A program made the position numbers and the translations under genes. Shown in pieces: positions 38,379-61,939 of a DNA stretch of 64,000 nucleotides. How positions within the stretch are numbered: position 1 is the stretch's first letter; each line of letters starts with the position of its first letter. This DNA comes from an uncultured bacterium (GTDB lineage: Bacteria > Patescibacteriota > Minisyncoccia > UBA6257 > GWB1-50-10): positions 136,230 through 200,229 of the forward strand of contig CAVYJB010000002.1 of the NCBI GenBank assembly GCA_963768835.1, written 5' to 3'. A model generated the notes under the pieces. That model saw only the letters and a program-made list of their open reading frames with translations. It made no database searches and was not told the origin of the DNA.

Positions 38379-38447
38379 AGATTAGAACGAAGCGAAGAGC
38401 CTCTTCGTTTCGTAACGCCCTGTAACACTTTGATTTGCAACATTGAG

Positions 38448-38518
38448 TGCGGGATACCGGGATCGAACCGGTGCCTTAACCTTGGAAGGGTCACGTACTG
38501 CCACTATACGAATCCCGC
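38448..38518 (-). tRNA. tRNA-Gly (anticodon UCC)
   Basis: Minus strand GCGGGAT…ATCCCGC acceptor, anticodon stem TGACC/GGTTA loop CTTCCAA, T-arm ACCGG-TTCGATC-CCGGT; D-stem only 3 bp. Confidence 0.65.
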
Positions 38519-38636
38519 GAATGGCTTTCGGGTGCCCCCCCATTAAACCATAGGTATCTCTGCTTGTCCCGTATCCTACGTGGGGCTTCAGGTTCTGCAA
38601 CGGTTGCTGGGTTTGAGCACTCTCGACCCTTCGTGT

Positions 38637-39263
38637 ATGATGGTACAACGTATGAAGTGGGAGAAAGCGTCCCGAAAACACCTGTGGTGGGGGGTTGGCG
38701 CGGCTGGCGTGCTTTTGGCGGCGGGCGCCGTGGTGCTCGTTGTCCGGAGCGCGGGCCCCGTGGTGCTTCCGCCTGAGTTCTTAGCGGCTCGCCGGAGCGC
38801 CGCTCTCACGAGCGCGCAGATCGTGAGCCTTACGAACCAGACGGACGATACGATTAAGCAGGTCAATTTCTCGGACCTTGGGGGTGACAGTACCCAAGCA
38901 CTCGCGCTTATCGAAAATGCACGTTCCGCCAACCGCGAGGCTTACAGCAAAGCCTTCGAGCTTACAGGGTATCTCCAAACCCTCGCGGGCTCACTTCAGG
39001 CAATTCCGCCCGGGTCCGGGCAGGGAGTCGCCTACGAAGCGGTATCGGTGGAACTTTCGCTCGTGAGTGAATTCATTCTCTATACCCAGCAATTGAACGG
39101 TTTTCTGGACGCTCTTGGAAAGGCTATCACATCGGGCACGCCCGCGGATCGAAGTGCTGCTCAGGCGGCGCTCGCGGGGGTGAACACGGAAGTAACAAAA
39201 ATCGACACCATTAACCAACAGTTTCTCTCGAAGATGCAGGAGTTCGATCAGTCTCTCCAGTGA
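38637..39263 (+). CDS. membrane-anchored hypothetical protein
   Basis: N-terminal TM (WWGVGAAGVLLAAGAVVLVV) then helical domain; longer ORF from 38580. Confidence 0.45.
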   Translation: MMVQRMKWEKASRKHLWWGVGAAGVLLAAGAVVLVVRSAGPVVLPPEFLAARRSAALTSAQIVSLTNQTDDTIKQVNFSDLGGDSTQALALIENARSANREAYSKAFELTGYLQTLAGSLQAIPPGSGQGVAYEAVSVELSLVSEFILYTQQLNGFLDALGKAITSGTPADRSAAQAALAGVNTEVTKIDTINQQFLSKMQEFDQSLQ

Positions 39264-39610
39264 ACGAATGGGGTTTAGAAAGCGCCGTGTTTGACGGCGC
39301 CTTCTGTTTTCGATACGGTGAGGGCAGCCAAGCTTTTATAACCACACAACAACGAGGAACCGTCATGGTCCCGACTTTGCAATCGATCGCCAGCGCCCAG
39401 AAGGGAAACCCGTCGAAGTGCCCCTCCTGTAATCAGCCATTCAGGCCACTCGATCCGATCTGGGAGCATAAGCCGACAGGAATCATTATCCACGAACCCG
39501 ATCCATTCTCCGAATACAGGTGTGTTGCGACCGCCCACGCCCCATTTCGGGAAATTCCCCTAGGGGAATGGAAGGTATGTCGTCGTTTCTTTCCTCCCGC
39601 GGGCGCATAA
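39260..39610 (+). CDS. small Cys-containing hypothetical protein
   Basis: ATGA overlap with upstream gene; CPSC motif; followed by hairpin terminator 39626-39655. Confidence 0.35.
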   Translation: MNEWGLESAVFDGAFCFRYGEGSQAFITTQQRGTVMVPTLQSIASAQKGNPSKCPSCNQPFRPLDPIWEHKPTGIIIHEPDPFSEYRCVATAHAPFREIPLGEWKVCRRFFPPAGA

Positions 39611-39736
39611 GGAGACCCCTTCGATTCAAAAGGGCCGTCAGCGATGACGGCCTTTTCTTATTATCCGTGAAAACAAAACCCGCCGGTGGAAGGCGGGTAA
39701 ATGAAGCAATAAAACAAAGAGACAGAAAAAGAGAGG

Positions 39737-40282
39737 TCACCTGCCGGGAGCGCAGTGGATGCAGGTGCAAACACTCGGATCCGCCATGAATCGTTCAAAA
39801 GGAATGGTCTCCGAGCGGCACTCCAGGCAAATGCCCTGAAACGTTCCTTCCTGTATCCGTCGCTTGTTGCGAAGGAGCTTTTCTAGTTTTTCCTTCTGCA
39901 CCCTCAGTTCAAGATCGGAGGCGTGCTCATCGTATCCTTCCATAGACGTGCTGTAGCGCGCCGGCCCTACGTCACGATCCATCCGATTCCCCTGCTGTTC
40001 TTCGAACATTTTGAGGTTAAATGCAGCCAGTTCAATTTCTTCTTCGATCTTCAATGCAATAATGCCTAGCTGTTCCGGGCCTAAGGGTTTCGGCTTTAGC
40101 TTCTGCGCCTCGGGCCTCGACTGGATGGTCGGTTTCAGTTGGGTCTTTATAAGACTGGGTGTTTTCGCAGCCGCTTTCCCCGCGTCGGCTCTTCGCATAG
40201 CAAGACACTCCTTATATAGGTGGGTTGATGGGTTGTGAAAGGACTTTGGAACCGCAGGGCCCATTATCCCACAAGAAAACAA
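39737..40282 (-). CDS. DksA/TraR-family C4 zinc-finger protein
   Basis: C-terminal CLECRSETIPFERFMADPSVCTCIHC (C-x2-C-x17-C-x2-C) and coiled coil; probable start at MRRADAG (~40196). Confidence 0.65.
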   Translation of the reverse strand: MFSCGIMGPAVPKSFHNPSTHLYKECLAMRRADAGKAAAKTPSLIKTQLKPTIQSRPEAQKLKPKPLGPEQLGIIALKIEEEIELAAFNLKMFEEQQGNRMDRDVGPARYSTSMEGYDEHASDLELRVQKEKLEKLLRNKRRIQEGTFQGICLECRSETIPFERFMADPSVCTCIHCAPGR

Positions 40283-40333
40283 CGGCCGTCAAACGGTCGG
40301 AGACGTTTCGTTATACAATCCTGTTTATCGGTG

Positions 40334-40404
40334 TCGGGCCGCCCGGATTTGAACCGAGACTAAATCCTCCCAAAGGACTCGTGCTACCGTTACACCACGG
40401 CCCG
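40334..40404 (-). tRNA. tRNA-Pro (anticodon UGG)
   Basis: Minus strand CGGGCCG…CGGCCCGA acceptor, anticodon stem AGTCC/GGATT loop TTTGGGA, T-arm CTCGG-TTCAAAT-CCGGG. Confidence 0.75.
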
Positions 40405-40484
40405 TTGCCCTCCAGTGTATAAGAGAACCATAGCAACCGCAATCGCTTGAAGAGTGCCAATGAGTCCGTTACCATTCAGCGAAG

Positions 40485-40558
40485 GCCCCCGTAGCTCAAC
40501 TGGATAGAGCAAGCGGCTTCTATCCGCTAGGTTCCAGGTTCAAATCCTGGCGGGGGCA
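40485..40558 (+). tRNA. tRNA-Arg (anticodon UCU)
   Basis: GCCCCCG TA GCTC AACTGGATA GAGC A AGCGG CTTCTAT CCGCT AGGTT CCAGG TTCAAAT CCTGG CGGGGGC A. Confidence 0.85.
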
Positions 40559-40574
40559 CTAGAGATTAGCATTT

Positions 40575-41342
40575 TTAACGACTCCGCTTGAGAAGCGAGA
40601 GCAGAAAGAAGAACGCGCTTACAAGGACGGTCGCGATGCCCGCTCCGATGGTAGTCGCAGCGCCGATGAAAAGCCCTGCGGTAAGAGCGGAAATCGCGAT
40701 AACGACGCTCCAAATAACGAAGCCACGGAAGTTCGAGGCAAGGTTCCGCGCGGTGACTGCCGGGATGATGGAGAGGGCACTCATAAGGAGAACGCCCACG
40801 AAACTAATACCTATCGAGATGGTGATGGCGATAAGGATAAGGAGCAGGAGCTCCATCCGGGGTTCGCGGGTGCGTTCCGCTGCGGCAAGATCCGGTGCGA
40901 TAGCCGTGAGCACTAAGGGTTTTAGGTAACGGGTCGCAACGAAGAGGATGACGAGCGCGATAGCGGACAGTGCTATGAGCTCGGGACTGGTGATACGCTC
41001 CACACTTCCGAAGAACGCTTCCAAAAGGTCCGTCTGGGGGATAAGGAGCGCTCCCACTGCGAGTGCGGTCACAAAGAGGACGCCGGTGATGGACTCGATG
41101 GCGAGCCGCGTTTTATGCTCGATGACCCAGATGAGGAGAACTCCGACGAAAAGGAACGCGACCCCGCCCCAGAGCGGCTGGAAATGGAGGACAACGCCGA
41201 GTGCGATGCCGGGAAGCGCGACATGGGAAAGGGCGTCCGAGAGAAGGGTCATTTTCCGGAGCACAAGAAGTGACCCCACAAGACCGCTCGCGGCAGCGAC
41301 GAGGACGCCGGCAATCACTGTAAGGGGAAGGGATTCAGGCAT
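40575..41342 (-). CDS. metal (Zn/Mn) ABC transporter permease, ABC-3 family
   Basis: 8-TM ZnuB/MntB-like protein adjacent to cognate ATPase. Confidence 0.7.
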   Translation of the reverse strand: MPESLPLTVIAGVLVAAASGLVGSLLVLRKMTLLSDALSHVALPGIALGVVLHFQPLWGGVAFLFVGVLLIWVIEHKTRLAIESITGVLFVTALAVGALLIPQTDLLEAFFGSVERITSPELIALSAIALVILFVATRYLKPLVLTAIAPDLAAAERTREPRMELLLLILIAITISIGISFVGVLLMSALSIIPAVTARNLASNFRGFVIWSVVIAISALTAGLFIGAATTIGAGIATVLVSAFFFLLSLLKRSR

Positions 41343-42048
41343 GGTCAGAAGGGCCTTGGAAATGATGGTGATGGAAGAAAGCGTGGTCTCCGTAGAGCTC
41401 CGAGAGCCGCGCAGTCGTAAGAGAAGACTCCGGTTCGCCGTAGCAGATCATTTTCTCATTAAGACAAACGACTCGGTTTGCATAGCGATATACGACATGG
41501 AGGTCATGAGAAACGATGAGGAGGGCCACATGGAGAGTGTCCTGCAGGTGATGGAGGAGGGTGTAGATAGAATCCTGGCCTACTACATCCACATTTTCTG
41601 TCGGCTCGTCAAAGAGAAGAACCTGGGGTTTATCAAAAATAGACCAAGCAAGAAGCACTTTCTGCAGTTGGCCGCTTGAAAGATGCGCGAGACTTCGCGT
41701 CGTCCAAGTCGCATCCATCCCTGCCAGCGTAAGAACTTCATGCAATGGGTACGATTGGAGAGGCTTCAGACGAAGGAACTCTCCAACTGTCATCGGAAGG
41801 TAGTGGTCCACATGGAATCGCTGGGGGAGATAACCAATCTTCGTGCCGGGCTTCCATGTTACACTGCCGGCGGTCGGCAGATAGATGCCCGCAAGAGTTT
41901 TGAGGAGCACAGATTTCCCGGCACCGTTTGGACCGATGATAGCGACAACCTCCTCTGGGTTCAGAACGAAAGTGACACCGTCGATGGCCACCTTGCCGTC
42001 GAACGCGACGGTGAGGTTTTGTATTGAGAGAAGAGGGGAAGCGTCCAT
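41335..42048 (-). CDS. metal ABC transporter ATP-binding protein (ZnuC-like)
   Basis: Walker A GPNGAGKS, signature LSSGQLQK, Walker B LLFDEPT. Confidence 0.8.
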   Translation of the reverse strand: MDASPLLSIQNLTVAFDGKVAIDGVTFVLNPEEVVAIIGPNGAGKSVLLKTLAGIYLPTAGSVTWKPGTKIGYLPQRFHVDHYLPMTVGEFLRLKPLQSYPLHEVLTLAGMDATWTTRSLAHLSSGQLQKVLLAWSIFDKPQVLLFDEPTENVDVVGQDSIYTLLHHLQDTLHVALLIVSHDLHVVYRYANRVVCLNEKMICYGEPESSLTTARLSELYGDHAFFHHHHFQGPSDHA

Positions 42049-42119
42049 TGGATTTGATTATAGCTCCTATAACATTACCACGCTCGTGTGATGAGACGAG
42101 CGTACAAAAGTTCCATACA

Positions 42120-42194
42120 TGGTGCCGCGGGAGGGAATTGAACCCCCGACGCCAGCCTCTTCAGGGCTGCGCTCTACCACTGAGCTACCGCGGC
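42120..42194 (-). tRNA. tRNA-Phe (anticodon GAA), CCA encoded
   Basis: GCCGCGG TA GCTC AGTGGTA GAGC G CAGCC CTGAAGA GGCTG GCGTC GGGGG TTCAATT CCCTC CCGCGGC A CCA. Confidence 0.9.
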
Positions 42195-42288
42195 GGTGTG
42201 GGATTTCAAACTGCAGGATTAATGTACACCAACGCCCGGACAGATTCAACGGTTTCCAGCGGTTTCTGTATGGTTTATACTTAGCTTT

Positions 42289-42621
42289 ATGGAAGATCTC
42301 ACCAAGAAAAAATGTGTGCCGTGCGAGGGAGATGCGATGCCTCTAGATAAGGAGCGGGCAGGTGGCTATCTCCGGATGGCACCAAGATGGACGCTTGACG
42401 TATCGGGGAAGAAGATCTACCGCGCATTCCCCTTCAAGGATTTTGCGGAAGCAATGGTGTTTGTGAACAAAGTTGCGGGCATTGCGGAGGGGGAAGGGCA
42501 TCACCCCGATATCTATATTTTCTACAACAAGGTGAACCTCGAGCTTTGGACCCACAACATCGGAGGGCTTTCCGAGAACGATTTCATCGTGGCTGCCAAA
42601 GTGAATGAAGTGATGCCGTAA
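42289..42621 (+). CDS. pterin-4-alpha-carbinolamine dehydratase (PCD/DCoH)
   Basis: …GIAEGEGHHPDIYIFYNKVNLELWTH… signature. Confidence 0.8.
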   Translation: MEDLTKKKCVPCEGDAMPLDKERAGGYLRMAPRWTLDVSGKKIYRAFPFKDFAEAMVFVNKVAGIAEGEGHHPDIYIFYNKVNLELWTHNIGGLSENDFIVAAKVNEVMP

Positions 42622-42736
42622 AAGTATCCGCGCACGTGAAGCAGGGACGGTGTTCACCCTTCCCCTATGCGGATGTGCTCCAAGTCAGGAACGTTTCCAA
42701 CAAAGCCCCGCACTGAGCGGGACTTTTATATGCCAT

Positions 42737-42878
42737 CCAGAAAACCACGGGCGTAAGCCCGTGGATGAAGGCACCCCGCGGTCTTCTTCAGCGCTACCTC
42801 TGCCTGCAGGAGAGGGAAGACCGCGGGCAAGCGAAGCTTGTACTCTCCTCCCAGAAACCACGGGCGTGAGCCCGTGGA
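42737..42878. repeat. two direct copies of a 28-nt hairpin unit flanking a 12-bp-stem inverted repeat
   Basis: CCAGAAA(A)CCACGGGCGTRAGCCCGTGGA at 42737-42765 and 42851-42878; central CCCCGCGGTCTTC…GAAGACCGCGGG; on minus strand each hairpin is followed by TTT(T)CTGG (terminator-like, downstream of dedA). Confidence 0.6.
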
Positions 42879-42881
42879 GTT

Positions 42882-43641
42882 TCATTTCAAAGGAGGGCGA
42901 GGAGGGAACGCAGGGGGTTTTGTGGGGGTGCCTACTTCAGGAGAGGCATTTTCATCCATAGATACATCAGTTTCCTCAATATTATCGTTTAAACGCTCCT
43001 CAAAACCGATAGCTCGGCCAAGGGCCCGTCTCAGGAAGTGCTCTCCGAGGAACACAAGGATCAAGATGACAACAATCCCGACCTCGACGTTCCGGAAAAT
43101 GCGCTGGGTTTTGAGGTAACTCAGACCCGTCATTAGGAAGTACGCTATGCCCGTCATCGATATGAACCATAGCAGTACCGTCCAGAGGTAGTTCTTGAAA
43201 AAGGTCGCGAACCGCACACGCGACCACCCCGTGAGGAGCAGCATCGCGAAGTTCATTGTGGGGAGGAACCGGACGATAAGAAAAAGCTTCCCGATATTCT
43301 TCTTCAGATAATAGGAATAGAGCTGGATGCGCCGATTGGGTTTCAGGCGCCGGTAGAATCGCCACCCGAAGCGCGTTACCCGGAGCGTGCGACCGATAAG
43401 ATACACCAGCGTCTCACCCACGAAGAGCGCGCCGAGAGCAGTCGCGATAAACTCGTTCCAGGAAAGGAACCGGTTGATGACGAGATAGACAGAAAGAAGG
43501 AGAGTCAGTTCTCCCTGGAGAAGGATACCGATACCGACGATGAGGTAACCCCAGGAGGGGTGTTGGCCCAGGAGTGTTCCTAGGGTGTCCACAAGATTGT
43601 TCACACGCCTATTATATCGTACAATCAATATGCGATTGCAA
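42882..43641 (-). CDS. DedA-family membrane protein
   Basis: …LVDTLGTLLGQHPSWGYLIVGIGILLQGE… DedA/VTT N-terminus; likely GTG start ~43641 (ORF-track ATG 43703 gives non-homologous extension). Confidence 0.65.
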
Positions 43642-44066
43642 TGCATATCGACGAAAACAACATAAAATTCAAGGCAGTTCGAGCGAGCGGCCCTGGCGGC
43701 CAAAATGTGAATCGGCGGTCCACCAAAGTTCAGATCTGGGTAGAGGTTGGGAAGCTTGGTCTCACAGAAGAGGAGGAAAAGCGGATTCGAGAAAAACTAG
43801 CTCATCGTTTAAACCAGCGGGATGAACTTGAGGTGGTCGTCGAAGACCAGCGCTCGCAAGAGGAGAACCGAGACATCGCCCTCGAACGATTGCGAACGAT
43901 GATAGAAGAAGCCCTTCGGGTCCCTCCGGAACGAATCCCGACCGAGGCGCCTCCGCATGTGGAGCGTGGTCGGGTTGTGCGAAAAAAAGCTACCGGGGCG
44001 AAGAAAGAAGAACGTACCACGCCATGGGAGGAGGTGGCAGAGGAAGAAGAAGGGAAACGGGCCTAA
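43641..44066 (+). CDS. arfB: alternative ribosome-rescue factor ArfB (peptidyl-tRNA hydrolase, GGQ domain)
   Basis: …VRASGPGGQNVNRRSTKVQI… GGQ motif plus basic C-terminal tail, ~140 aa. Confidence 0.8.
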   Translation: MHIDENNIKFKAVRASGPGGQNVNRRSTKVQIWVEVGKLGLTEEEEKRIREKLAHRLNQRDELEVVVEDQRSQEENRDIALERLRTMIEEALRVPPERIPTEAPPHVERGRVVRKKATGAKKEERTTPWEEVAEEEEGKRA

Positions 44067-44142
44067 TGGCTGTTCGCAGCGGTTTGAAAAGTCTGCTGTC
44101 GAGGGATAAGATGAGGCCACGGAATACGGGGGTATTCCGAAT

Positions 44143-44214
44143 GGTGCCTATAGTGTAGCGGTAACACAGGAGTCTGTGGCACTCCTATCACGGGTTCGAA
44201 TCCCGTTAGGCACC
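44143..44214 (+). tRNA. tRNA-His (anticodon GUG) with encoded G-1
   Basis: G-1 + GTGCCTA TA GTGT AGCGGTA ACAC A GGAGT CTGTGGC ACTCC TATC ACGGG TTCGAAT CCCGT TAGGCAC C; G-1:C73 pair. Confidence 0.85.
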
Positions 44215-45168
44215 CAAGAAGGGATTTTGCGAGTAGAGAACGGCCATTTGTCTTTTCTCCATCGCATTTTCCGGAGGTTCTAACCGCTCATGAATGGCTC
44301 TGACCTCAACAGCCGCCTCTTCGATGTAGTTCAGTGGTTTTACTAGGGAAACACTAAGCTTTCCGCCCATGAGGGAGAGGTTCGAACCAAAATCCGCCAG
44401 GATTGATTTTTTCGCCTGCCAATCATCCTTAGCCTTTTCAAACTTAGTTTTCGCGTCCCTTGCGAAGCTGAGGGCCTTCTCGGCTTTCTCAAGCCATTTA
44501 TCAACATTTCGATCCGCGTCGTTCAGAATCTCCTGCAACCGCGCCTTCTCGCCGAGTAGCCGCGCTTTTTGGTCCGCGAATTCCTTTTCATCGAGCTCCT
44601 TGTTTATCCGCATCTCGAGGAGTGATTCTAGTTTACGGACAACCTTATCGTATTCTCTCCGCTGATTGGTGAGGATCGTCTCTCTGTCCGCCCTCTCGTG
44701 TTCTGTCTCACTTTTCAAAACCTCGATAGCCCAGTCGTAAAAATCCCGTGGAATCTCGATCCGTCCGAGCTCGCGGACGATTTGCGTCTCAAGCTCTTTT
44801 TCGGGAATCGGTTTTTGGGAACAGAAACCTTTTCTCTTGGTACAGCGATAGTACGTGTAGCGGTGAACATTGCCGTTTACCTGGTGTTTTACCTTCTCCT
44901 CGGCGGTCACCATACAACCGCACTCTCCGCACCGTATAAACCCCGTAAACGCGAAATTATGCGTCTTGGGGCGTGGTTTGTTGGCGTTCCCGAGTATGTA
45001 CTGGGCCTCGTCGAACTCCCCCTTGGTGAGCATTCGGTCGTGTGCCCGAGACTGTAACGGAAGGGATTGTGAGCGGAATTGTTCCTGGCCCGATTTATAA
45101 AACCAATGCGGCGATTGACCACGGCAATTCCGGCGGTATCGCCATATTAAATAAGAATGATTGTTCAC
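44206..45168 (-). pseudogene. large serine recombinase, N-terminally truncated (recombinase-domain tail + Zn-ribbon + coiled coil only)
   Basis: …LTKGEFDEAQYILG…KTHNFAFTGFIRCGECGCMVTAEEK…YTYYRCTKRK… zinc-ribbon and long coiled-coil typical of large serine recombinases; no resolvase catalytic domain; 3' end overlaps tRNA-His. Confidence 0.65.
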
Positions 45169-45536
45169 TTGGCATCCCGACCTTGGGCGTTTCCGGTCTT
45201 ACGGCGGGAATCGGCTACATTCAATCGTATTCTCTTGCCAGCCAACCAATAATCTATTCACAACCCTCTGTTGCTCCCTCCACCCCTCCCGCCCCGGCCA
45301 ATCCAAGGCAATTCACTGTATTCGGTCAAGGCTTTTGCGCTGATACCGGTGGTGCAACTTTGACGATTGGCGGCACATGGGTCCCAGATAAATATATTCT
45401 TTCGTGGACCGACAATAGCATCACATTTGTAGTTCCAGATTCTATAGCGAGAGGGAACTACGATGTCCAAATCCTTGGGGCACGGGGCACTGCATATTGT
45501 CCAGCAGCCTCGGGAGGCAGAATCAATGTTCCATAA
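45042..45536 (+). pseudogene. N-terminally truncated trypsin-like (HtrA/S1C-type) serine protease fragment
   Basis: …TNAAIDHGNSGGIAILNKNDCSLGIPT… (GNSGG catalytic Ser region) without His/Asp-bearing N-terminal half; in-frame stop just upstream. Confidence 0.5.
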
Positions 45537-45596
45537 AGACGGGCACAGATCTGTTTACGGGCTTAAAAAAACTAAAGGCCGTATCCAAACAATAAT

Positions 45597-46091
45597 ATGA
45601 CTCTCATGAAAAAATTAATCGTATTGGTTTCGCTGGGCCTCCTATTGCCCTCCTTCGTCGTCGGGGCGACACTCAATCGCAATCTCTCCATTGGTATGAC
45701 CGGAACGGATGTATCTTGGCTTCAGCAATTCCTTACCTACGACGGTGTCTACAGCGGACCAATTACCGGGACCTTCGGTCTTCTCACGAGAAATGCAGTA
45801 GTCGCATTCCAGGTGCAAGAGGGTATTTCACCAACGAACGGCTATTTCGGCCCCCTCACCCGCGCCGATGAGATTAAGGTCCTAGCGGCTCACCCGGACT
45901 GGACGACGTCGCTCTCCAACGGCAACTCCTACTCGAATGTGAATGGAAACCCCGTCCACTCTCCTGCTTACTCCTCTAATGGGGTTCCAGCTGGCGCAAC
46001 CGCACAGTGCCGAGACCTAACGTATAGTTTTAGCCTGCATCGTAGCGGTACATGTTCTTATCACGGAGGTGTACTGCATTGGTTGTACTAA
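45597..46091 (+). CDS. secreted protein with peptidoglycan-binding domain (PG_binding_1) and DUF3761-like C-terminus
   Basis: Signal peptide; …DVSWLQQFLTYDGVYSGPITGTFGLLTRNAVVAFQ…; C-terminal …CRDLTYSFSLHRSGTCSYHGGV…. Confidence 0.55.
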   Translation: MTLMKKLIVLVSLGLLLPSFVVGATLNRNLSIGMTGTDVSWLQQFLTYDGVYSGPITGTFGLLTRNAVVAFQVQEGISPTNGYFGPLTRADEIKVLAAHPDWTTSLSNGNSYSNVNGNPVHSPAYSSNGVPAGATAQCRDLTYSFSLHRSGTCSYHGGVLHWLY

Positions 46092-46097
46092 AAATGG

Positions 46098-46373
46098 ATG
46101 AGTAGTTGGCTGAAAGAAAATTGGTTTAAAGCGGGAATACTGTCCCTTCTCCTACTGGTTACGATTGGTGGGTTCTTTTGGTATGAAGTTCGCCCGGCGA
46201 TAATCAGAAATGAGTGCTCTTGGACCGTCGAGCATGTACCGGCCATAACAGAAATCACTCCAGATGAAGCAAAAACTCTGCAAGAACAATGCTTAGAGGA
46301 GCAAAAAAACCAGGCGCCTTCAGGGAAATTTCTCAACTTGTTCCCCCCGGAGATGAGGCTGCTTCTTGTTTGA
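46098..46373 (+). CDS. small membrane protein (possibly frameshifted/pseudogene)
   Basis: One TM; overlapping alternative frame ORF 46289-46471 suggests disruption. Confidence 0.3.
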   Translation: MSSWLKENWFKAGILSLLLLVTIGGFFWYEVRPAIIRNECSWTVEHVPAITEITPDEAKTLQEQCLEEQKNQAPSGKFLNLFPPEMRLLLV

Positions 46374-46509
46374 ATAACAACCAACGAAGACCCGCGCAAG
46401 AAGCCAAGGATTTACCACGGAAAACGAGTGAGGACGAGTACAAATTTTGCATTCGTAACAAAGGACTGTGATCCCCACCCCACGCGAGGAGGTGATAGAA
46501 TGAGACCAC

Positions 46510-46998
46510 ATGGGCAGTACCCGCTTCTCACATGAACTAATTAAGGGGAAGATAGCGGAACTCATTTTCGAGCTGATGTTCCGCGAGTCAGGGAGATTCA
46601 CGACACTTCGGTTCGGTTATGAGTACACCCTCCCCGAGCTAGCGCAGTACCAGCATCTCGTTGAGGTTAAGAAGGTTTTGGATAATATCCGCAATGCGCC
46701 AGATTTCATCCTGATTTCGAACGCCACGGAGAAGAAAGCGGTTTATATTGTTGAGGTCAAATACCGGACGAGGCGTGACCCGAAGGAGATTAAGGAAATC
46801 GCCGAGAACACGCTCAAGACCTGGGACCCGTCATGGCTGTTTGTCGCTTCGCCAGACGGGTTTTTCTTCGAGCCCTGTCATACGGTGATGAAGAACGAGG
46901 GGAACATTGGTCCGCTATATGAAACGTGGGTTCCTAGGCCAATCATGAACAAGTACCTCGAACTGCTCAAGGACTTTGAGCACGGTGAGGACCGGTAG
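46510..46998 (+). CDS. PD-(D/E)xK-fold nuclease-like protein
   Basis: Helix E (…KIAELIFELMF…), …NAPDFILIS…(D) and …AVYIVEVKYR (E-x-K) in canonical order/spacing. Confidence 0.5.
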   Translation: MGSTRFSHELIKGKIAELIFELMFRESGRFTTLRFGYEYTLPELAQYQHLVEVKKVLDNIRNAPDFILISNATEKKAVYIVEVKYRTRRDPKEIKEIAENTLKTWDPSWLFVASPDGFFFEPCHTVMKNEGNIGPLYETWVPRPIMNKYLELLKDFEHGEDR

Positions 46999-47023
46999 GA
47001 GGTCGGAGTGATAGAATTTAACT

Positions 47024-47866
47024 ATGGCGAGACAAGGACACTCTCAGAAGGAAGATCCCTTCGAACTGTACCTTAGGGGGGTTTTCACCCTGGCTGTTCT
47101 GGGTTTAGGTTGGTACATTCTAGAGAATCCGAAGAAATCGGTAACCATATTAGTAGCGGTTCTCGTTGTCATCCTCCTGTTTGTCGTTTTGAGGATATGG
47201 TGGCGCAGAAAACACTTCAATGATCTATTAGAGAAACTAAGGAATTCCCCCGGACAAGAAGATGCTGTCAAAAGGTTTATCGCAATATCTGGCTCCGAGA
47301 AGGGGAGGGGAGAAGATTTCGTGAGCATCCGAGGCCATAAGTTCAGGAGGTACGACATTGAAGATCTGACAAACACGTTAAGAAAGAATGGCGTACCCGC
47401 AAGGGAGAAAGATGTTTCGAGGCTTCTTGAGCATTATATCCGAGAAAGAGGAGAGGGATTTATCAGTGGGCTCGGCAGTGTTTCTAAAGAGCCTCAGAGA
47501 TTCGCGAGTTTGTCTCCATACCAGTTCGAGCAGCTCCTCGTTCGCCTTTTCCAGGCGATGGGATATGAAGCCCGACACCAGGGTAGGCCGGGCGATCAGG
47601 GAGGTGACGTAATCGCTGTCAAAGGAGGTGAGAAACTTTTGATACAAGCCAAGCGTTATGGTGACCAAGACCCCACCGGGAATGCCGCCGTCCAGCAAGC
47701 GTTTACAGCGATGAGCATCTACAACTGCAATGAATCAATGGTGGTCACGACCTCCTATTTTACGCCAGAGGCCAGGGAGGCAGCCAAAACAACCCGGACC
47801 TATCTTGCCGAAAAGAAAGAACTGCAAAAATGGCTTCAAGAATATCTGAAGGAAGACTGGTTCTAA
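47024..47866 (+). CDS. membrane-anchored Mrr-like restriction endonuclease domain protein (Mrr_cat)
   Basis: Two N-terminal TM; C-terminal …FEQLLVRLFQAMGYEARHQGRPGDQGGDVIAVKGGEKLLIQAKRY…NAAVQQ… matches Mrr catalytic core (D…QxK). Confidence 0.6.
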   Translation: MARQGHSQKEDPFELYLRGVFTLAVLGLGWYILENPKKSVTILVAVLVVILLFVVLRIWWRRKHFNDLLEKLRNSPGQEDAVKRFIAISGSEKGRGEDFVSIRGHKFRRYDIEDLTNTLRKNGVPAREKDVSRLLEHYIRERGEGFISGLGSVSKEPQRFASLSPYQFEQLLVRLFQAMGYEARHQGRPGDQGGDVIAVKGGEKLLIQAKRYGDQDPTGNAAVQQAFTAMSIYNCNESMVVTTSYFTPEAREAAKTTRTYLAEKKELQKWLQEYLKEDWF

Positions 47867-47992
47867 ATCTCGACCGAGAAGGGTTGCCTGGGTAAGGCAT
47901 AAGACCGTTCGAATATTGTCCAGTCGACGAACCTGATACCCCTGAATATTGCTGCAATCGCCTTTGCGCAGGGGCGGTAGTTCCTAACTCCA

Positions 47993-48904
47993 ATGGAAAA
48001 CGAACCCGATAGAACTCAACAACCGGCCCCGGTTAAGACCAAAAAGAAGTGGAACCGAGGGCTTGGTGGATTTATTGTGAGTGGTTTAATTTACGCGTTT
48101 GCACAGGAGAGTTTCAACAAATCAGGAGTCGACGCGGCTATTATTCTTGCTGTTGCACTTGGAGCGTGGCCGCTATACTACTTTCTCAAATCCAAGATAA
48201 GAGAAAGTGAGTGGGTAAGAATCGTTGTCGCCTTTCTTATTATTGAAATAATCGCCGGGTTCTTGATTGGATTTTCTATTCGGATGACGGATAGATTTTC
48301 GGCAACTGCTGTTGGCGCTCCGAGTTTGGCGCCGACCGCGGTTAAGAAAGATGTTAATCAAGAAAGCCCTACGGCTCCCACTGGAACCCTTAACTATGAT
48401 GCCCTTATCAACGATGCCTTGTCTAACCTACAAACAAAGCAGGGCAACCTCGAAACTGTTTTGTCCACCAGTAAATATACTTCGTATAAATACAGCGCCT
48501 TGTTGGGACAGTTAGTATTTACCGATCCCTCAACGAACGACAGGCTAACCGCCGAAGTACAGGACATAGGCGGTTTGGCGCCCGACAAGGACGGCAAGGA
48601 AACATGGATGTGGTCTTGGGCTAATGACTCCGTGCCCTCCGATATGGCGAAAGATTCTTCAGGAGTTAAGCAATTTGGCACCATTCATAATCAAGAGATA
48701 AGAAACGCGCCAACCAACAAGGCGTTATTAGGTCGCAATCCTCTAACGGAGGGGGTATTTATTTCTGACGACGTAGACGCCCTTGATCTTACCGCTGTAA
48801 CACTCTACCTAGCTGGCGGTGAAGGAATCTACAAGGTGCCGTTTACTAACGATAATGGGAATGCGGTTGAATACTTATTAATAAAAGACTTCTTGGGTCG
48901 GTAA
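47993..48904 (+). CDS. membrane hypothetical protein
   Basis: 3 N-terminal TM then extracytoplasmic domain. Confidence 0.45.
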   Translation: MENEPDRTQQPAPVKTKKKWNRGLGGFIVSGLIYAFAQESFNKSGVDAAIILAVALGAWPLYYFLKSKIRESEWVRIVVAFLIIEIIAGFLIGFSIRMTDRFSATAVGAPSLAPTAVKKDVNQESPTAPTGTLNYDALINDALSNLQTKQGNLETVLSTSKYTSYKYSALLGQLVFTDPSTNDRLTAEVQDIGGLAPDKDGKETWMWSWANDSVPSDMAKDSSGVKQFGTIHNQEIRNAPTNKALLGRNPLTEGVFISDDVDALDLTAVTLYLAGGEGIYKVPFTNDNGNAVEYLLIKDFLGR

Positions 48905-48953
48905 GAAAGAATAGACTCGATCGAAAGGAACCCCCCAGCTGTCAACGAAACTA

Positions 48954-49020
48954 TGGTGAGTGGCATGGTGGGGTACCCCTAAAAACAGGTTCTAACGTCC
49001 TCCACCAGGGGCTGTCCTAC
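48954..49020 (+). repeat. cassette-associated repeat copy R1
   Basis: …GAGTGGCATGGTGGGGTACCCCTAAAAACAGGTTCTAACGTCCTCCACCAGGGG…. Confidence 0.7.
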
Positions 49021-49037
49021 CTGGACTATTCTATTCC

Positions 49038-49922
49038 TTAGTTGGACGAGGTCACCCTAAACCCGCCAAACTCGACATCCATGAAATCGGTTCGAATACC
49101 AACGTTACCGGGAACTGAGATTGGTTTGCCTCCATATTGAATACCGTCATCGGTGGCACTCAGGACCTCCTTCCAATTGCCGGTCCTTCCGATATCAACC
49201 GACAAGACAATGGTCACGCTTCCAGTAGCATTGTTGGTGACGTTGGTCCGGAGCCCAACCGATTCTCCAATGGGCAGTAGGTTCGGATTTCTAGTGCGGT
49301 CATACGTTCCTGGGAAGATGGCACGATACGCCATGGTGTAATAGACCCCATTCGCCTTCTTCTTAATCACCGCGGCACCATCCACACGGACGCCCACGTC
49401 ATAGAGATTGTTGGCATCCTGATAGCGATTGAGAAGGAACAAACCATTCGATTGGTTGCGGTTCGGGCTCGCGCTGAAATTATTATTCTTAATCAGGAAA
49501 TAGGTCTCTGCGGTATAATTCTGCCACTTCGATTGCGATATCAACCGAAAAACATTCTGAGGATGATAGCCTTCATCGGTATCAACTGGGTTATTCTGAA
49601 AATACCTCAGTCTCCACGCATCGCTGCTCGGCAGTGAGCCCATGATGGTCGATGCCACGCCGCTGGTCGCAACATAGAAATACCCTCCTGAACTGGGCCA
49701 CCAATCCGGATTGGCGCTCTCTGTCGAGCTTCCCACCTCTTGCAGTTCTCCTTGCACGGAAAGGAAGAGATTCTGGGCGGGGGTGGATGACGCGGCTTCC
49801 ATCGCAGTTCGTTTATTACTCAGCGGATGGGACGGGGAACGCAAGATAGTTCCCACCAGAGCAATCAGGAGAAGGAAGGCGATGGTCGTGAGAAGGAAGA
49901 AAATTATCTGGTGGTGCTTCAT
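49038..49922 (-). CDS. membrane-anchored extracytoplasmic protein, ConA/LamG-like beta-sandwich (hypothetical)
   Basis: N-terminal TM; shares beta-rich repeat pattern with C-terminal domains of adjacent deacetylase. Confidence 0.45.
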   Translation of the reverse strand: MKHHQIIFFLLTTIAFLLLIALVGTILRSPSHPLSNKRTAMEAASSTPAQNLFLSVQGELQEVGSSTESANPDWWPSSGGYFYVATSGVASTIMGSLPSSDAWRLRYFQNNPVDTDEGYHPQNVFRLISQSKWQNYTAETYFLIKNNNFSASPNRNQSNGLFLLNRYQDANNLYDVGVRVDGAAVIKKKANGVYYTMAYRAIFPGTYDRTRNPNLLPIGESVGLRTNVTNNATGSVTIVLSVDIGRTGNWKEVLSATDDGIQYGGKPISVPGNVGIRTDFMDVEFGGFRVTSSN

Positions 49923-52237
49923 TATTGGTAGGTGTTCTGTACGTCCGCACTCTCTACGATAATCTTACTGTTATTTGTCGTCGGGTCCCATGTGGTGAAT
50001 CCGATGCCGCCGCTGAAGGGCGGATTCATGGTATAACCGGTCGTACTCAACACGACGTGGTTATCGAAGGAACAGATACCCTGTGTGCCCTGCACCTGGG
50101 CATAGATGGTATGCGCAGACGAGATATCCGAGACGTTGTTGTCGGCGCCTTCCGCCAAAACGTACTCGACGCCGTTAATATATTGCTCTAATGCAATACT
50201 AACGGTTCCGGGAACGCTTCGGTCGAACTCGCACCGTACGTAATTATTATCATCCTTGTACCGCGCGATTATACCGAGGGTCTGACCGCGCACCCAATCA
50301 ACCGCCGCGCTGAACTTGTAATCCGTCCAACCCCCTGAGTTTGCCAATATCACCTCAGAACCGGTGGTGGAGGCATTCGCTTCCGTGCTTAGGAACCTTT
50401 CGGAGTCTATCACCATGGTTCCCCATGTCGTTCGCCAATTTCCGTCGTTTGCGAAATCATTCTCAGTGTATGGAATCTGAAGGTTGGGAACTGGCAATTC
50501 CGGGGAAGACGGGGGAGAACTACTCGGTGCGACAGCAACGATTTCTGCTGTGGACGTCGGGCTGGGAGCCACGGCTGAACTCGTTGCCACATCCGTGCTC
50601 TGCTTACTATCCGAAACCCCGCTACTCGGCATATCGGCCGTGGCAATGGCATTAATCGGCAATGGCGCGGCGCTCAGGCTCACAATCTCCAATTTCTTGA
50701 GGGTCGATTGCGCAACTACGTTCGGGTCCCATACGCTGAAACCAGCCGCACCCCTCGATAACGTTGTGGAGACTCCGTTGGTCAACGCTTTCCCGTCGAA
50801 CGAAACGGCGACAATGCCGTTATAGACGGACATGGTAATTTCCATTTCGTCTTTTCGGGGCAACGAGTATGCCGAAGCGAGCTCCCGTTCCTTCCCGTCC
50901 ACGCACTCTACTAGTCGCAGAGATGTGTCGCCCCAGTCCAGACTGATGTAATTCTGCTCGTCAACATAACGGGCCACGATAGATGCGGAACGGCCCGTTT
51001 CCCGAGCTATGGTTGCTCGAATACTGTAATTGTCCCATCCCGAATCTCCCAATAGCACGCGAGCCGCGTTGGACCCCGCCTTGGAGAGGAGCGTGAAGCC
51101 GTTTCTTGTGTCAAGCGTGCCGTACAACAACTGAGTATTCTGAAGAAACGATGTTGAATCGCCAGAGCTTGGCAAGGTGAGGGCGGGCGGTTTCGGGGCA
51201 AAATGTTCCAATGTTCGGAGCAAATTATCCGGGCCCATGTCCTTCACCTCGAGCCGCTTTAGCTCATTGTACGGGTTGGAGTCTTTATAGTTATAAAAAC
51301 TTTCGAACGCCCCGTTGCTATCGCTCATGGCTTCGACGAACGCGAGCTTGAAATAGCGGCGCGTGAGCCCGATGTTGAAATCTTTGGCACCGTCGTAGTT
51401 AGACAGGTCCAACGCCCCGAAGTGGTTGAGCGGCACCGCAAGGTACTGGGGGTCCGTTCCCAGATGTTCTTTTATGTCCGATATGCCGTTTATATAATCC
51501 GCCTCGACTCTTTTCTGATAGCTCTTGATGCTTTCTAGGCCTACACCCGGCGTATAGATGCGCGATGTCAGATACGACCCGGTGTTCCCATCCTTGTCTA
51601 TCACAACTTTTTCATGGGAACGCCTGCCGTGCGCCTCGATTTCCCAGCGCCCCGTGGCCTGCATCTTCGCCAGCTCATCCCACCCGAGGTAGAACGGGTC
51701 GTTATTGTTGGCCCTGATGGTGGCTACGAAAAGGGTTGCCTTGAATCCCAGCTTCTTCAATACGTCGTCGACGGGGTAGAAACTGTCCTTGCGTCCATCG
51801 TCGAACGTAAGAATGATGGGCTTGGGTGGCAACGTGAACTTTCCCTCCCTGAAGAGTTCGTACTCCCCGACCGATATGGTCTCATATCCATTCTGCTTCA
51901 GCATCTCCATCTGGGCGATAAAATTCGGACGGCTAGTGTTCGGGCCCACTGGACCGTTGCTTATGATGCCGTGATACATGAGGATGGGTACGGCTTGGCC
52001 CGGAGACAGTTTGGAGGTATCTTCCACTGTGAAATTCTTCGGCGGGGAGAAAGCATAGACATACGCATGAATGCGTATCGCCTTTAGTAAGCCGCTACTG
52101 GCCGGATATAGGAGGATAACCACCGTTCCTACGAATGCCACGATAATCAATAGATAAATTGTTTTCTTGAGTGTCATGGTTATCGTGTACCCCAATGTGT
52201 CTTCCGAAGCGTCAGAAGGGCGTAGGGCATCTGCCAT
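49922..52237 (-). CDS. polysaccharide deacetylase (NodB homology domain) with two C-terminal lectin-like domains
   Basis: N-terminal TM; …PIILTFDDGRKDSFYPVDDVLKKLGFKATLFV… NodB motif 1; duplicated ~130-aa beta domains at C-terminus. Confidence 0.7.
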   Translation of the reverse strand: MADALRPSDASEDTLGYTITMTLKKTIYLLIIVAFVGTVVILLYPASSGLLKAIRIHAYVYAFSPPKNFTVEDTSKLSPGQAVPILMYHGIISNGPVGPNTSRPNFIAQMEMLKQNGYETISVGEYELFREGKFTLPPKPIILTFDDGRKDSFYPVDDVLKKLGFKATLFVATIRANNNDPFYLGWDELAKMQATGRWEIEAHGRRSHEKVVIDKDGNTGSYLTSRIYTPGVGLESIKSYQKRVEADYINGISDIKEHLGTDPQYLAVPLNHFGALDLSNYDGAKDFNIGLTRRYFKLAFVEAMSDSNGAFESFYNYKDSNPYNELKRLEVKDMGPDNLLRTLEHFAPKPPALTLPSSGDSTSFLQNTQLLYGTLDTRNGFTLLSKAGSNAARVLLGDSGWDNYSIRATIARETGRSASIVARYVDEQNYISLDWGDTSLRLVECVDGKERELASAYSLPRKDEMEITMSVYNGIVAVSFDGKALTNGVSTTLSRGAAGFSVWDPNVVAQSTLKKLEIVSLSAAPLPINAIATADMPSSGVSDSKQSTDVATSSAVAPSPTSTAEIVAVAPSSSPPSSPELPVPNLQIPYTENDFANDGNWRTTWGTMVIDSERFLSTEANASTTGSEVILANSGGWTDYKFSAAVDWVRGQTLGIIARYKDDNNYVRCEFDRSVPGTVSIALEQYINGVEYVLAEGADNNVSDISSAHTIYAQVQGTQGICSFDNHVVLSTTGYTMNPPFSGGIGFTTWDPTTNNSKIIVESADVQNTYQ

Positions 52238-53520
52238 ATGAATACAGAAACGAAGAGTAGGGAGACAATTGGCATGTACATCCAGTTCTCCGCCTTGTGA
52301 TACACGCGCACAAATAAAGCGAATACGATCCCCAGCAAAATGAAGCCGGACATGAAAACGAGGAACAGTAGTGGATTGTGGGTCCGTATGCTGTTCACGA
52401 GTACGCTACCAGCTAAGATGGGGCCGAGAATTGGGAAGCTGAAGTTGGTATAAAAGGCGAAACTTGCCAGCGGGTGCACCTTCTTCCACATAAAGAGACT
52501 CGCCATGGTCCCCTCGCGTATCCATGATTTCTTCCACCTTAATTGTTGCCGCCAATAGACAGAGAATTTCTCGGGCACTATCGTCGTGGCTTCAGCCTTC
52601 GGGCAATACACAATGTCCCACCCTTTGAGCACGAAGTTTGTCAGCCCCCGGTCATCACCGAATGTCCCCTTCGTGCCCAAGAATTTCTGCCCTTTCCACG
52701 CTTCGACGAGCGGGAGCACCGCTTTCTTCCGGTACGCAGAGAAGCAGCCTGGGCAACAGGTAACGGAACGGTGCACGCTTTCGCTGGCCTTGTAGATATT
52801 GAACGAAACCGCGTATTGAATGGATTGCATACGCGTGAGCAGGTTCGCATTCGCGTTCTCTGCTTTCGTGTTCCCGGAAACCGCGCCAATCCGTTCATTC
52901 GCCATGAAATGTTCCACAATGTGATGGATGGCATCAGGGGCAAGAAAGCTATCGGAATCAACGAAGACAATAATATCGTGGCGCGCTTCGTTCATGCCTA
53001 CCGCCATCGCCTCTCTTTTCCCCCTATTCACAGGGAATGAGATAAGTCTCACCTTTCCTCCGTAATACTGCTCGGCTCTCAGAACTTCCTTCTTGGTACC
53101 GTCGGTAGACCCATCGTCAATCACGATGCATTCGATCTCCCCGGGATATTGCGACCCGACACACGTGGCAATGGTTCGGAATATACCATCCTCTTCGTTC
53201 TTCGCGGCGATGATAACGCTCACATTGGGATAAGCAGAATCCGGATAGATTGCTGTGTGGTCATCTTTGTGCAGGTAGGCATAGGGTATACGGGAGAGCA
53301 AAAACGTCGTCGCGATAATGCCGTAAAAAGTCCAGAACGAGACAGAAAACGACATACTTGCTATGAAAATTGCTTTATAAAGTAACAGCCCGGTAATCAG
53401 GACCATGAAACATACAAAAACCAACACGGATTTTACCGAGCTCGTCAGCGACTGCGAGGTAGTGTTCGAAATAGTTCTTGATGCGTCCATTCGAGTGAGG
53501 TTTAGCCAACCACCGACCAT
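52180..53520 (-). CDS. processive family-2 glycosyltransferase (PgaC/IcaA/cellulose-synthase-like, QxxRW)
   Basis: …VIDDGSTDGT… DxD, …QQLRWKKSW… QxxRW motif, TM helices flanking. Confidence 0.75.
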   Translation of the reverse strand: MVGGWLNLTRMDASRTISNTTSQSLTSSVKSVLVFVCFMVLITGLLLYKAIFIASMSFSVSFWTFYGIIATTFLLSRIPYAYLHKDDHTAIYPDSAYPNVSVIIAAKNEEDGIFRTIATCVGSQYPGEIECIVIDDGSTDGTKKEVLRAEQYYGGKVRLISFPVNRGKREAMAVGMNEARHDIIVFVDSDSFLAPDAIHHIVEHFMANERIGAVSGNTKAENANANLLTRMQSIQYAVSFNIYKASESVHRSVTCCPGCFSAYRKKAVLPLVEAWKGQKFLGTKGTFGDDRGLTNFVLKGWDIVYCPKAEATTIVPEKFSVYWRQQLRWKKSWIREGTMASLFMWKKVHPLASFAFYTNFSFPILGPILAGSVLVNSIRTHNPLLFLVFMSGFILLGIVFALFVRVYHKAENWMYMPIVSLLFVSVFIWQMPYALLTLRKTHWGTR

Positions 53521-53647
53521 TCTTTACCCCTGGTTAAAGCGCCGTAGTTATACAACAAAATGAAAAAATAAGCAAGCGGAGACTGAGCGAACGCCGCTTG
53601 CTGGGACGATTCACGAACCCCGAGCCTGGCACCTCAGCCCGACTCTA

Positions 53648-53695
53648 CTGTCTTCTGACATCGTGTTCGTCGCATTTGACCCCTGGGGTGTCCTG
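53648..53695 (+). repeat. degenerate cassette-associated repeat copy R1b
   Basis: ACTGTCTTCTGACATCGTGTTCGTCGCATTTGACCCCTGGGG – partial match to core (cf. R10 CTCTGACATCGTACAC). Confidence 0.35.
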
Positions 53696-53712
53696 GCAGT
53701 ACTTTACTGGAG

Positions 53713-54210: not shown

Positions 54211-54288
54211 GACCAGTTGTTCCGGTTTGATGGTCTAGGGCCTCCAAAACGTCCGACTCGAAGTCTGGCGTGGAGGTGTAGGAGAAAA

Positions 54289-54343
54289 GCGTACCCTAAG
54301 GGGCTACCAAACAGGTTCTAACATTCTCCACTAGGGGACCCTG
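54289..54343 (+). repeat. cassette-associated repeat copy R2
   Basis: …GCGTACCCTAAGGGGCTACCAAACAGGTTCTAACATTCTCCACTAGGGGACCC. Confidence 0.8.
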
Positions 54344-61915: not shown

Positions 61916-61939
61916 AAGCCAGGATGGTATACTGGGAAC

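Follow-up and report, generated by a model that had tools for sequence, protein, structure and literature searches.

The 64,000-nt stretch of DNA analysed here (the window) comes from a metagenome-assembled genome (MAG) of a Paceibacteria-like member of the Patescibacteria, and homologues of its proteins carry the names Paceibacterota, Minisyncoccia, Wolfebacteria and Adlerbacteria. At the 3' end of a tRNA-His gene it contains the remnant of a large serine recombinase (LSR) gene, which is followed by a truncated serine protease gene and by a run of genes that includes two for nuclease-fold proteins, one of 162 amino acids (p162) and one of 280 amino acids (Mrr280). A sequence-only reading of the window had proposed that these features represent a decayed integrative element with a compact two-nuclease defence locus as its cargo. 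Our analysis leads us to assign a probability of roughly 70% to a related but different reading, that the locus is the immobilised scar of an LSR-type integrative element at the tRNA-His 3' end, with independent, probably defensive cargo downstream. For comparison, we used a second assembly, L001, which spans window positions 44212-54339, together with loci that were chosen because they encode homologues of p162 or of the LSR remnant.

A truncated recombinase gene ends inside tRNA-His

The tRNA-His(GUG) gene lies at 44144-44215 on the plus strand and is apparently intact (ARAGORN; Rfam RF00005, 64.3 bits). On the minus strand, a mechanically called open reading frame (ORF) covers 44206-45168, and its stop codon at 44206-44208 falls within the 3' strand of the tRNA acceptor. 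On the opposite strand, the last 10 nt of tRNA-His also contain the end of the recombinase ORF, with its final two codons and its stop codon. The overlap had been noticed in the sequence-only reading, which put it at 9 nt.

The part of this ORF with recombinase homology (44206-45042, minus strand) was recognised by PF13408, XisF and phrog_95 and by alignments to full-length LSRs. Zn_ribbon_recom (PF13408, E 3.4e-11) is the sole Pfam match; in NCBIfam the ORF aligns to positions 239-355 of the 465 positions of XisF, and the PHROG integrase family phrog_95 matches it over positions 343-551 of 651 (E 8e-20). When the ORF is compared with nine full-length LSRs and with database homologues, likeness begins at residue 43 of the ORF (nt 45042), equivalent to residue ~240-283 in enzymes of 450-640 amino acids. 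The motif at this point, HDRMLTKGEFDEAQ, matches the conserved HEPMIT..E.D.VQ, the last conserved motif of the recombinase domain. The remnant retains the end of the recombinase domain (its last ~15 residues) together with the Zn ribbon and the coiled-coil/C-terminal tail, and the alignment runs through the coiled-coil of the homologues. A 275-aa ORF begins at M46 (nt 45033), while the mechanical extension to 45168 has no homology.

The missing part of the gene was not found elsewhere. Pfam gave no match in the remnant to the resolvase catalytic domain with its nucleophilic serine (PF00239) or to the recombinase domain (PF07508), and tblastn with full-length enzymes found no N-terminal LSR sequence in any frame of the window. 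A sequencing frameshift is thus excluded as an explanation, since none could restore the gene. By these alignments, the remnant is shown to be a true N-terminally deleted LSR that cannot be catalytic. The earlier description of an ORF that keeps the tail, Zn ribbon and coiled-coil and lacks the resolvase domain is therefore accurate, and the single frameshift that might have explained it away is absent.

One deletion would account for the truncation of two genes

Next to the remnant, on the plus strand, lies a 5'-truncated gene for a trypsin-like (S1, HtrA-like) serine protease (45030-45536), which was identified by a TIG domain (Pfam E 2e-4), by weak matches to DegS/DegP and by alignment to a protein of locus L006. 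The ORF at 45042-45536 encodes ...TVTEGIVSG...AIDHGNSGG... and has 47% identity to residues 399-456 of the 465-aa trypsin-like protease of L006; a TIG/IPT domain then follows. This agrees with the sequence-only reading, which had seen the C-terminal part of an HtrA-like protease (GNSGG) with an in-frame stop just upstream (TGA, 45027-45029). Only the GNSGG serine segment of the active site is present. The catalytic His and Asp are missing, as is the signal peptide, leaving the triad incomplete, and the fragment is presumed to be a pseudogene.

The recombinase and protease ORFs had been described as overlapping on opposite strands. They do lie on opposite strands, but the overlap results from ORF-calling extension: LSR homology on the minus strand reaches to 45042 and protease homology on the plus strand begins at 45051, so that the real homologies abut at a junction at 45043-45050. 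Both genes lack their 5' parts and they are divergently transcribed, and hence one deletion accounts for both truncations. An event that truncated both genes, as proposed earlier, is thereby retained, but no insertion separate from this deletion needs to be invoked. As judged from the alignments, the deletion is shown to have removed the first ~240-280 LSR codons, including the catalytic serine domain, and the 5' ~390 codons of the protease. The region between them would have been lost as well; in intact relatives it holds a rolling-circle Rep gene. After this loss, the element can no longer excise.

A junction of this kind might also be a chimeric assembly artefact, given that the window is a metagenome assembly and that the L001 contig ends at window position 44212. 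We regard this as extremely unlikely, since the junction region (44601-45200) is 100% identical in the window and L001, and comparable truncated LSRs are present in independent genomes.

Recombinase genes recurrently meet the 3' ends of tRNA genes

In at least nine other loci, an LSR gene runs up to or into the 3' end of a tRNA or tmRNA gene that is convergent with it. Such convergent pairs involve tRNA-Leu (L013, 6631-8930), tRNA-Asn (L022, 5149-7544, and L037, 12358-14127), tRNA-Ser (L025, 6398-8856), tRNA-Asp (L003, 9353-10990), tRNA-Gln (L075, 6377-7980) and tmRNA (L038, 14960-16714). A frameshifted LSR adjoins tRNA-His in L034, and in L078 an LSR remnant at tRNA-His matches that of the window both in its 10-nt overlap and in its C-terminal peptide, ...YSQNPFLGA. 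Directly upstream of the LSR and on the same strand, a rolling-circle Rep gene is found in L013, L022, L025 and L010 (5531-8120), with matches to PF23343 (REP_ORF2-G2P) and PF05144 (Phage_CRI) and weak matches to RepSA. The recurrent overlaps and the upstream Rep genes point to integrative elements, composed of LSR and Rep, that use tRNA 3' ends.

The anatomy of these loci suggests how such elements would integrate. The LSR gene would lie at the edge of the element, convergent with the tRNA, and the attachment site would overlap its 3' coding end. Recombination by the LSR, at an attP that overlaps the 3' end of its gene, would then take place in the final nucleotides of tRNA-His, and as a consequence integration would regenerate the tRNA 3' end from element DNA.

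In L075, the LSR at tRNA-Gln is in two pieces, a Resolvase ORF of 257 aa and a Zn-ribbon ORF of 295 aa that overlaps it; the split could be due to a frameshift or to an assembly error, or it could be an early step of decay.

The tRNA-His site can be compared directly with that of L078. On the left, the two are syntenic through PCD (pterin dehydratase), VTT, an RF-1-domain protein and tRNA-His, at 47-51% amino acid identity; on the right, they share Cob_adeno_trans and MgtC, which correspond to window positions 61340-62979. Between these flanks, L078 contains its LSR remnant and 4.5 kb of unrelated genes, among them those of a two-component system; the window contains 17 kb. With the exception of the LSR remnant, window segment 44216-61340 has no counterpart in L078. 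DNA identity between the two is 96% over the first 50 nt after the tRNA and ~58% over the tRNA body, and the host flanks are unalignable. The last difference between the two tRNA-His genes lies 9 nt from the 3' end, which puts the change to element-type DNA among the final few nucleotides of the tRNA.

Base composition changes beyond the remnant as well. A deviant block extends over 45000-53000 (GC 0.48-0.51 compared with a window mean of 0.533); the strongest tetranucleotide deviation within it is at 46-53 kb, where z reaches 2.5 and GC is 0.48-0.49. Taken together, the N-terminally deleted LSR, the recurrent LSR-tRNA overlaps, the site comparison with L078 and the deviant composition bear out the earlier proposal of a decayed integrative element at tRNA-His.

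The truncated LSR could instead have been kept as a functional DNA-binding protein, for example one that blocks re-integration at the tRNA-His attachment site. Its 275-codon ORF is intact, it is 70% identical in amino acid sequence to the remnant in L078 where flanking host proteins are ~50% identical, many of its database homologues likewise lack the resolvase catalytic domain, and similar N-terminal truncations occur in L035, L076 and L078. However, the truncation points differ between the window (45042) and L078 (window-equivalent 44889), as expected under random decay, and many of the resolvase-less homologues come from very short contigs or, like that of L075, are interrupted by frameshifts. 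Moreover, the tRNA-proximal end of the gene is expected to stay, because deletions into the tRNA would be counter-selected. We consider a retained function of this kind improbable.

p162 is a stand-alone nuclease-fold protein

The p162 gene (46510-46998, plus strand) encodes a stand-alone PD-(D/E)xK-fold protein of an unnamed family, as indicated by its motif, an AF2 model and Foldseek. Residues E17, E21, P64-D65-F66 and E82-V83-K84 and a GYEYTxPELAQYQH loop are invariant in 34 aligned homologues, and E17/E21, D65, E82 and K84 are the predicted catalytic residues. In the AF2 model (pLDDT 89.7) the elements follow the order alpha-beta-beta-beta-alpha-beta, and the motif residues are located on helix 1, strand 2 and strand 3. 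The leading Foldseek matches are weak (best E 1.5e-3, to Hjc; TM 0.3-0.48) and all of them are PD-(D/E)xK nucleases; among them are Hjc ST1444, the SPARDA nuclease domain, the influenza PA endonuclease, BsaWI, RecU and viral resolvase-like proteins. Searches of Pfam, NCBIfam, PADLOC, PHROG and PDB sequences gave no significant match (TnsA_N reached E 0.046, and the PDB profile search was empty). We conclude that the assignment to the nuclease fold is well supported, while a closer classification is not.

Members of the p162 family come mostly from Patescibacteria, and nearly all are stand-alone proteins of 150-170 amino acids. One search yielded 562 clusters at 90% identity; among 1.84 billion representatives, the family comprises 594, 215 and 72 clusters of 50% identity at E <= 1e-3, 1e-10 and 1e-30, respectively. 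In genomes it is rare: patterns that suit most members of the family found 65 loci in a collection of 185,579 species genomes. Some MAGs carry two copies (L004/L023 and L041/L043).

To characterise the genomic setting of p162, we counted neighbours in the 62 genome loci other than the window, and distances to LSR genes over 64 loci. No conserved neighbour was present in the 62 loci, where the 122 directly adjacent proteins represent 119 different Pfam families. The sole recurrent neighbour is an LSR, which lies within 10 kb in 14 of the 64 loci. The placement is biased: p162 is on the 5', element-interior side of the LSR in 12 of 13 scorable cases (p ~0.002, simple binomial). A tRNA gene lies within 1 kb in 11 further loci, with its 3' end facing p162 in 10 of them. 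Other neighbours include AbiEii-type ATPases, Fic, RhuM, an AddA-like helicase-nuclease and a DinG-like helicase, as well as an Eco57I type IIG enzyme in L024. L010 and L070 have a trypsin-like protease gene 12-24 nt upstream of p162, and three more loci have one within 1.4-3.6 kb; the truncated protease of the window may thus once have belonged to the same module as p162.

Several individual loci add to this picture. In L035 (9990-10850), a p162 homologue is cut off after its first ~105 codons and continues in frame into the C-terminal part of an LSR, beginning at the recombinase-domain motif NPFYYGWF. Read as a deletion scar like that of the window, this fusion indicates that p162 and an LSR were neighbours in L035 too. 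An OLD-like AAA_15(+TOPRIM) ATPase directly adjoins the p162 homologue in L002 (818-3106) and L013 (9860-12149), and in L005 (2184-5401) the homologue comes directly after a complete MmeI-type type IIG enzyme. These arrangements could represent chance co-location in defence islands or an occasional functional pairing.

Mrr280 is a predicted membrane-anchored nuclease

Mrr280 (47024-47866, plus strand) matches the full model of Mrr_cat (PF04471, E 1.9e-26). Its 35 homologues of 257-296 amino acids share one architecture, in which a basic N-terminus is followed by two hydrophobic helices, an alpha/beta middle domain (78-149), a disordered linker and the Mrr_cat nuclease. GDQGGD195 and Q208-A-K210 are invariant in the family alignment. 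In the AF2 model (pLDDT 86), a helical hairpin is predicted at 12-34 and 36-74, and hydropathy is strong at 35-63 and weaker at 19-34. Positive charges on both sides of the hairpin would place the nuclease in the cytoplasm.

The top Foldseek matches of Mrr280 are AF1548, MspJI and AspBHI, and its PADLOC matches (ZorD, PDC-S02, mREase_IV, LmuA) cover the nuclease domain alone. Pfam detected no Mrr_N or SRA-like modified-DNA-recognition domain in Mrr280, and its match to a holin family is marginal (Phage_holin_T, E 0.096). Over 84 loci with homologues, no neighbour is conserved; the closest homologue (63% identity) lies among genes for AbiEii, Fic and an SLFN-like helicase. Mrr280 is thus most likely a membrane-tethered, cytoplasm-facing DNA endonuclease of the Mrr type and, by analogy with Epona or the type IV enzymes, it may act as a stand-alone defence or abortive-infection nuclease. 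A second protein with two transmembrane (TM) segments and Mrr_cat, a paralogue of 275 amino acids with 50% identity to Mrr280, is encoded outside the window on the same 551,795-bp contig (P0129).

The two nucleases do not behave as one system

The two nuclease-fold proteins recognised in the sequence-only reading are indeed present: p162 has the PD-(D/E)xK signature, with an invariant motif and a matching order of elements in the model, and Mrr280 has an Mrr catalytic core behind a hydrophobic N-terminus, according to Mrr_cat and hydropathy. Neither outcome that could have undermined this claim was encountered, as p162 did not align to a non-nuclease family and the two genes are not core genes in all relatives.

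The same reading had joined the two genes into one compact defence locus. A two-gene system could, for example, pair a soluble sensor or nuclease with a membrane-tethered effector nuclease, and there are features of the locus that would fit it. The two genes are neighbours on the same strand with 25 nt between them, and both lie in the block of deviant composition beside the integrase scar. In addition, the 10-mer GTGATAGAAT, an extended -10-like element, occurs on the plus strand at 46492-46501, ending 8 nt before the p162 ATG, and in a second exact copy at 47008-47017, ending 6 nt before the Mrr280 ATG; these are its only two occurrences within the 64 kb.

The wider comparison, however, separates the two genes. 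No Mrr280 homologue was found near p162 in any of the 62 genome loci, and no p162 homologue near a member of the Mrr280 family in any of the 84 loci. The nearest relatives of p162 (84% and 78% identity) and of Mrr280 (63%) lie in unrelated contexts, and neither family has a conserved partner. A profile-profile comparison of p162 with Mrr280 revealed no relationship (probability 0.1%); they are not paralogues. The shared 10-mer itself points to separate transcription units: its position would imply that each nuclease gene has its own promoter and a leaderless or near-leaderless mRNA. Motifs of the form TGnTAnRAT also occur 5-16 nt before other start codons of the window and upstream of some p162 homologues. 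With zero co-occurrence in 146 loci, no profile similarity and separate promoter-like elements, a two-gene system is unsupported, and we judge it very improbable. The proposal of a single compact defence locus is therefore abandoned in favour of p162 and Mrr280 as what appear to be two independent single-gene modules, not an operon-like system.

Other genes accompany the two nucleases on the plus strand. Upstream are a gene for a secreted protein with a hydrophobic N-terminus and PG_binding_1 and DUF3761 domains (45597-46091; Pfam E 1.6e-11 and 1.6e-22) and a gene for a 91-aa protein that has one hydrophobic N-terminal segment and no family match in Pfam or PHROG (46098-46373). Downstream, within the same deviant block, is a gene for a membrane protein, by hydropathy, with a DUF6882 domain (47993-48904; Pfam E 1.1e-20). 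Three cargo genes had been listed previously; the DUF3761, p162 and Mrr280 genes are all there, but the list missed the 91-aa membrane ORF between the DUF3761 gene and p162. Most likely, the DUF3761, 91-aa, p162, Mrr280 and DUF6882 genes are either surviving cargo of the element or part of an adjacent variable island.

Island cargo or native chromosome

A number of observations weigh against an integrative element with probably defensive cargo. No repeat of the 26-nt tRNA-His 3' end was found within 3 mismatches, and no distal boundary is defined. L078 is the sole relative for the site comparison and a distant one (~50% amino acid identity), which makes the lost synteny over 17 kb weak evidence for a single island. 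LSR genes are absent within 10 kb from 50 of the 64 p162 loci. p162 is unusually conserved for a defence gene, with 60-70% identity across many lineages and 34 invariant positions; it is absent from IMG/VR contigs, its position is stable in one population sampled 22 times, and the housekeeping genes BipA and CTP synthase lie beside it in some loci. PADLOC assigns p162 no significant match and Mrr280 domain-level matches only.

The first of these observations carries little information. A downstream direct repeat of the tRNA-His 3' end had been suggested in the sequence-only reading as a way to delimit the island, and no tRNA-derived direct repeat of at least 12 nt was found in any LSR locus. 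The crossover of serine recombinases is 2 bp, so that the tRNA-repeat test is uninformative for them. No displaced tRNA fragment or direct repeat is left because the switch to element-type DNA falls within the last few tRNA nucleotides.

The observations on p162 could point to a different account, in which the LSR fragment alone is foreign, the genes from the protease to Mrr280 and beyond are native and vertically inherited, and p162 is a housekeeping structure-specific nuclease (Hjc- or RecU-like). Its high conservation, its absence from viral contigs, its stable context within one population and its housekeeping neighbours would all fit, as would the Holliday-junction resolvases Hjc and RecU among its structural matches. 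The proteases near p162 in L070, L010 and three other loci suggest that the two genes may have been neighbours before the deletion, and the variable contexts of p162 could follow from the generally poor synteny of Patescibacteria genomes. Yet p162 is sparse and not a core gene (65 loci in 185,579 species genomes; 215 clusters at E <= 1e-10), is present in two copies in some MAGs and does not occur in the syntenic segment of L078. Its orientation relative to LSRs (12 of 13) and tRNAs (10 of 11) points to placement in islands, its neighbours are rich in defence and mobile-element genes, and composition is deviant at 46-53 kb. We therefore regard a native origin of these genes as unlikely. On balance, we read p162 as an accessory nuclease that spreads horizontally on islands linked to tRNA genes, and it most likely functions as a Mg2+-dependent DNA endonuclease in defence or in competition between mobile elements, this last step being the weakest of the argument.

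p162 might also have a closer tie to the elements that carry it. A tentative reading, to which we give some but limited weight, is that it is a hallmark gene of undescribed Patescibacteria elements with an LSR and a rolling-circle Rep, in which it would have an element-specific role and not be passive cargo. It might serve as a directionality or excision co-factor, as a nuclease that processes rolling-circle intermediates, or as an exclusion nuclease against competing elements. If this is true, LSR targeting of tRNA 3' ends via the recombinase's own coding end would be a widespread mode of integration in the phylum.

Surroundings of the locus

A cluster of five tRNA genes (Gly, Pro, Arg-tct, Phe and His) occupies less than 6 kb (38447-44215) immediately before the island; its Arg-tct/Pro pair and tRNA-His are syntenic with L078. 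The window also contains a tmRNA gene (18362-18673) with the tag peptide ANKTAVPALAYA; unlike the tmRNA in L038, it has no adjoining recombinase.

L001 is otherwise of the same strain as the window, with 100% identity at 44.6-49.8 kb and 53.0-54.3 kb. Between these segments, over a 771-aa polysaccharide-deacetylase protein and part of a GT2/chitin-synthase-like gene (49900-53000), identity is ~75%, and this stretch looks like a strain-variable surface-polysaccharide cassette swapped by recombination. The L001 contig stops at 44212, within the 10 nt shared by tRNA-His and the LSR and precisely where the attachment-site boundary is presumed to lie; the population may be heterogeneous at this junction, or the position may be mere coincidence.

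Relation to known systems

Islands that are linked to tRNA genes and combine a decayed integrase with defence cargo are commonplace, and we conclude that the locus is an ordinary decayed genomic island that reveals no new defence system. Its new pieces are modest: an LSR stop codon inside a tRNA gene, with Rep, in Patescibacteria; the p162 family and the link between it and these elements; and an Epona-like family in this phylum. To our knowledge, the mobile elements of Patescibacteria, and the sites at which they integrate, have been poorly catalogued. LSR genes that end in tRNA or tmRNA 3' ends and are accompanied by a rolling-circle Rep appear to constitute an uncatalogued family of integrative elements, and the overlap of an LSR with a tRNA or tmRNA 3' end, often with Rep, provides a recognisable signature of such elements in the phylum.

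Related islands have been described in other settings. In Prochlorococcus, 27 of 937 tycheposon-like elements carry an LSR in place of the tyrosine recombinase (bioRxiv 10.1101/2020.12.28.424599). Integrating rolling-circle elements or inoviruses that use serine recombinases have been reported as well, also in CPR (PMC6813254). As in these LSR islands, the integrase of the window lies at the island edge by a tRNA 3' end and is followed by variable, defence-like cargo; intact relatives of the element carry a rolling-circle Rep beside the integrase, and decay leaves an integrase pseudogene. In contrast to typical tRNA islands, the integrase is a serine and not a tyrosine recombinase, and its stop codon lies inside the tRNA 3' end. 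The element also differs from known LSR islands in that it lacks detectable flanking direct repeats, resides in Patescibacteria, is dead and is missing its Rep; no inovirus morphogenesis genes were seen at the locus.

p162 resembles Hjc, RecU, the N-terminal domain of TnsA and the DREN nuclease domain of SPARDA in its core fold and in the placement of E...PD...ExK, and its size is near that of Hjc and RecU. It is unlike these small PD-(D/E)xK nucleases in that its matches to them are weak and that no counterpart of its invariant GYEYTxPELAQYQH loop was identified among them. As a sparse but highly conserved family of ~600 clusters at 50% identity, p162 is a concrete candidate for functional testing.

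Mrr280 shares with the type IV enzymes Mrr, MspJI and AspBHI an Mrr_cat core with D...Q-x-K (IQAKRY), a motif that E. coli Mrr also contains. It differs from them in having no Mrr_N or SRA-like domain, and a membrane anchor is not a feature of theirs. A parallel in architecture is Epona, a validated single-gene anti-phage system of the Vibrio cholerae chromosomal integron, with Mrr_cat, a holin-like domain and two transmembrane segments (bioRxiv 10.1101/2024.07.02.601686). Like Epona, Mrr280 combines two N-terminal TM segments with a C-terminal Mrr_cat domain and stands alone in a variable region; unlike Epona, it has an extra conserved middle domain of ~70 residues. The occurrence of a 2-TM and Mrr_cat family in ultra-small bacteria supports the idea of membrane-tethered Mrr nucleases as a general single-gene design for defence.

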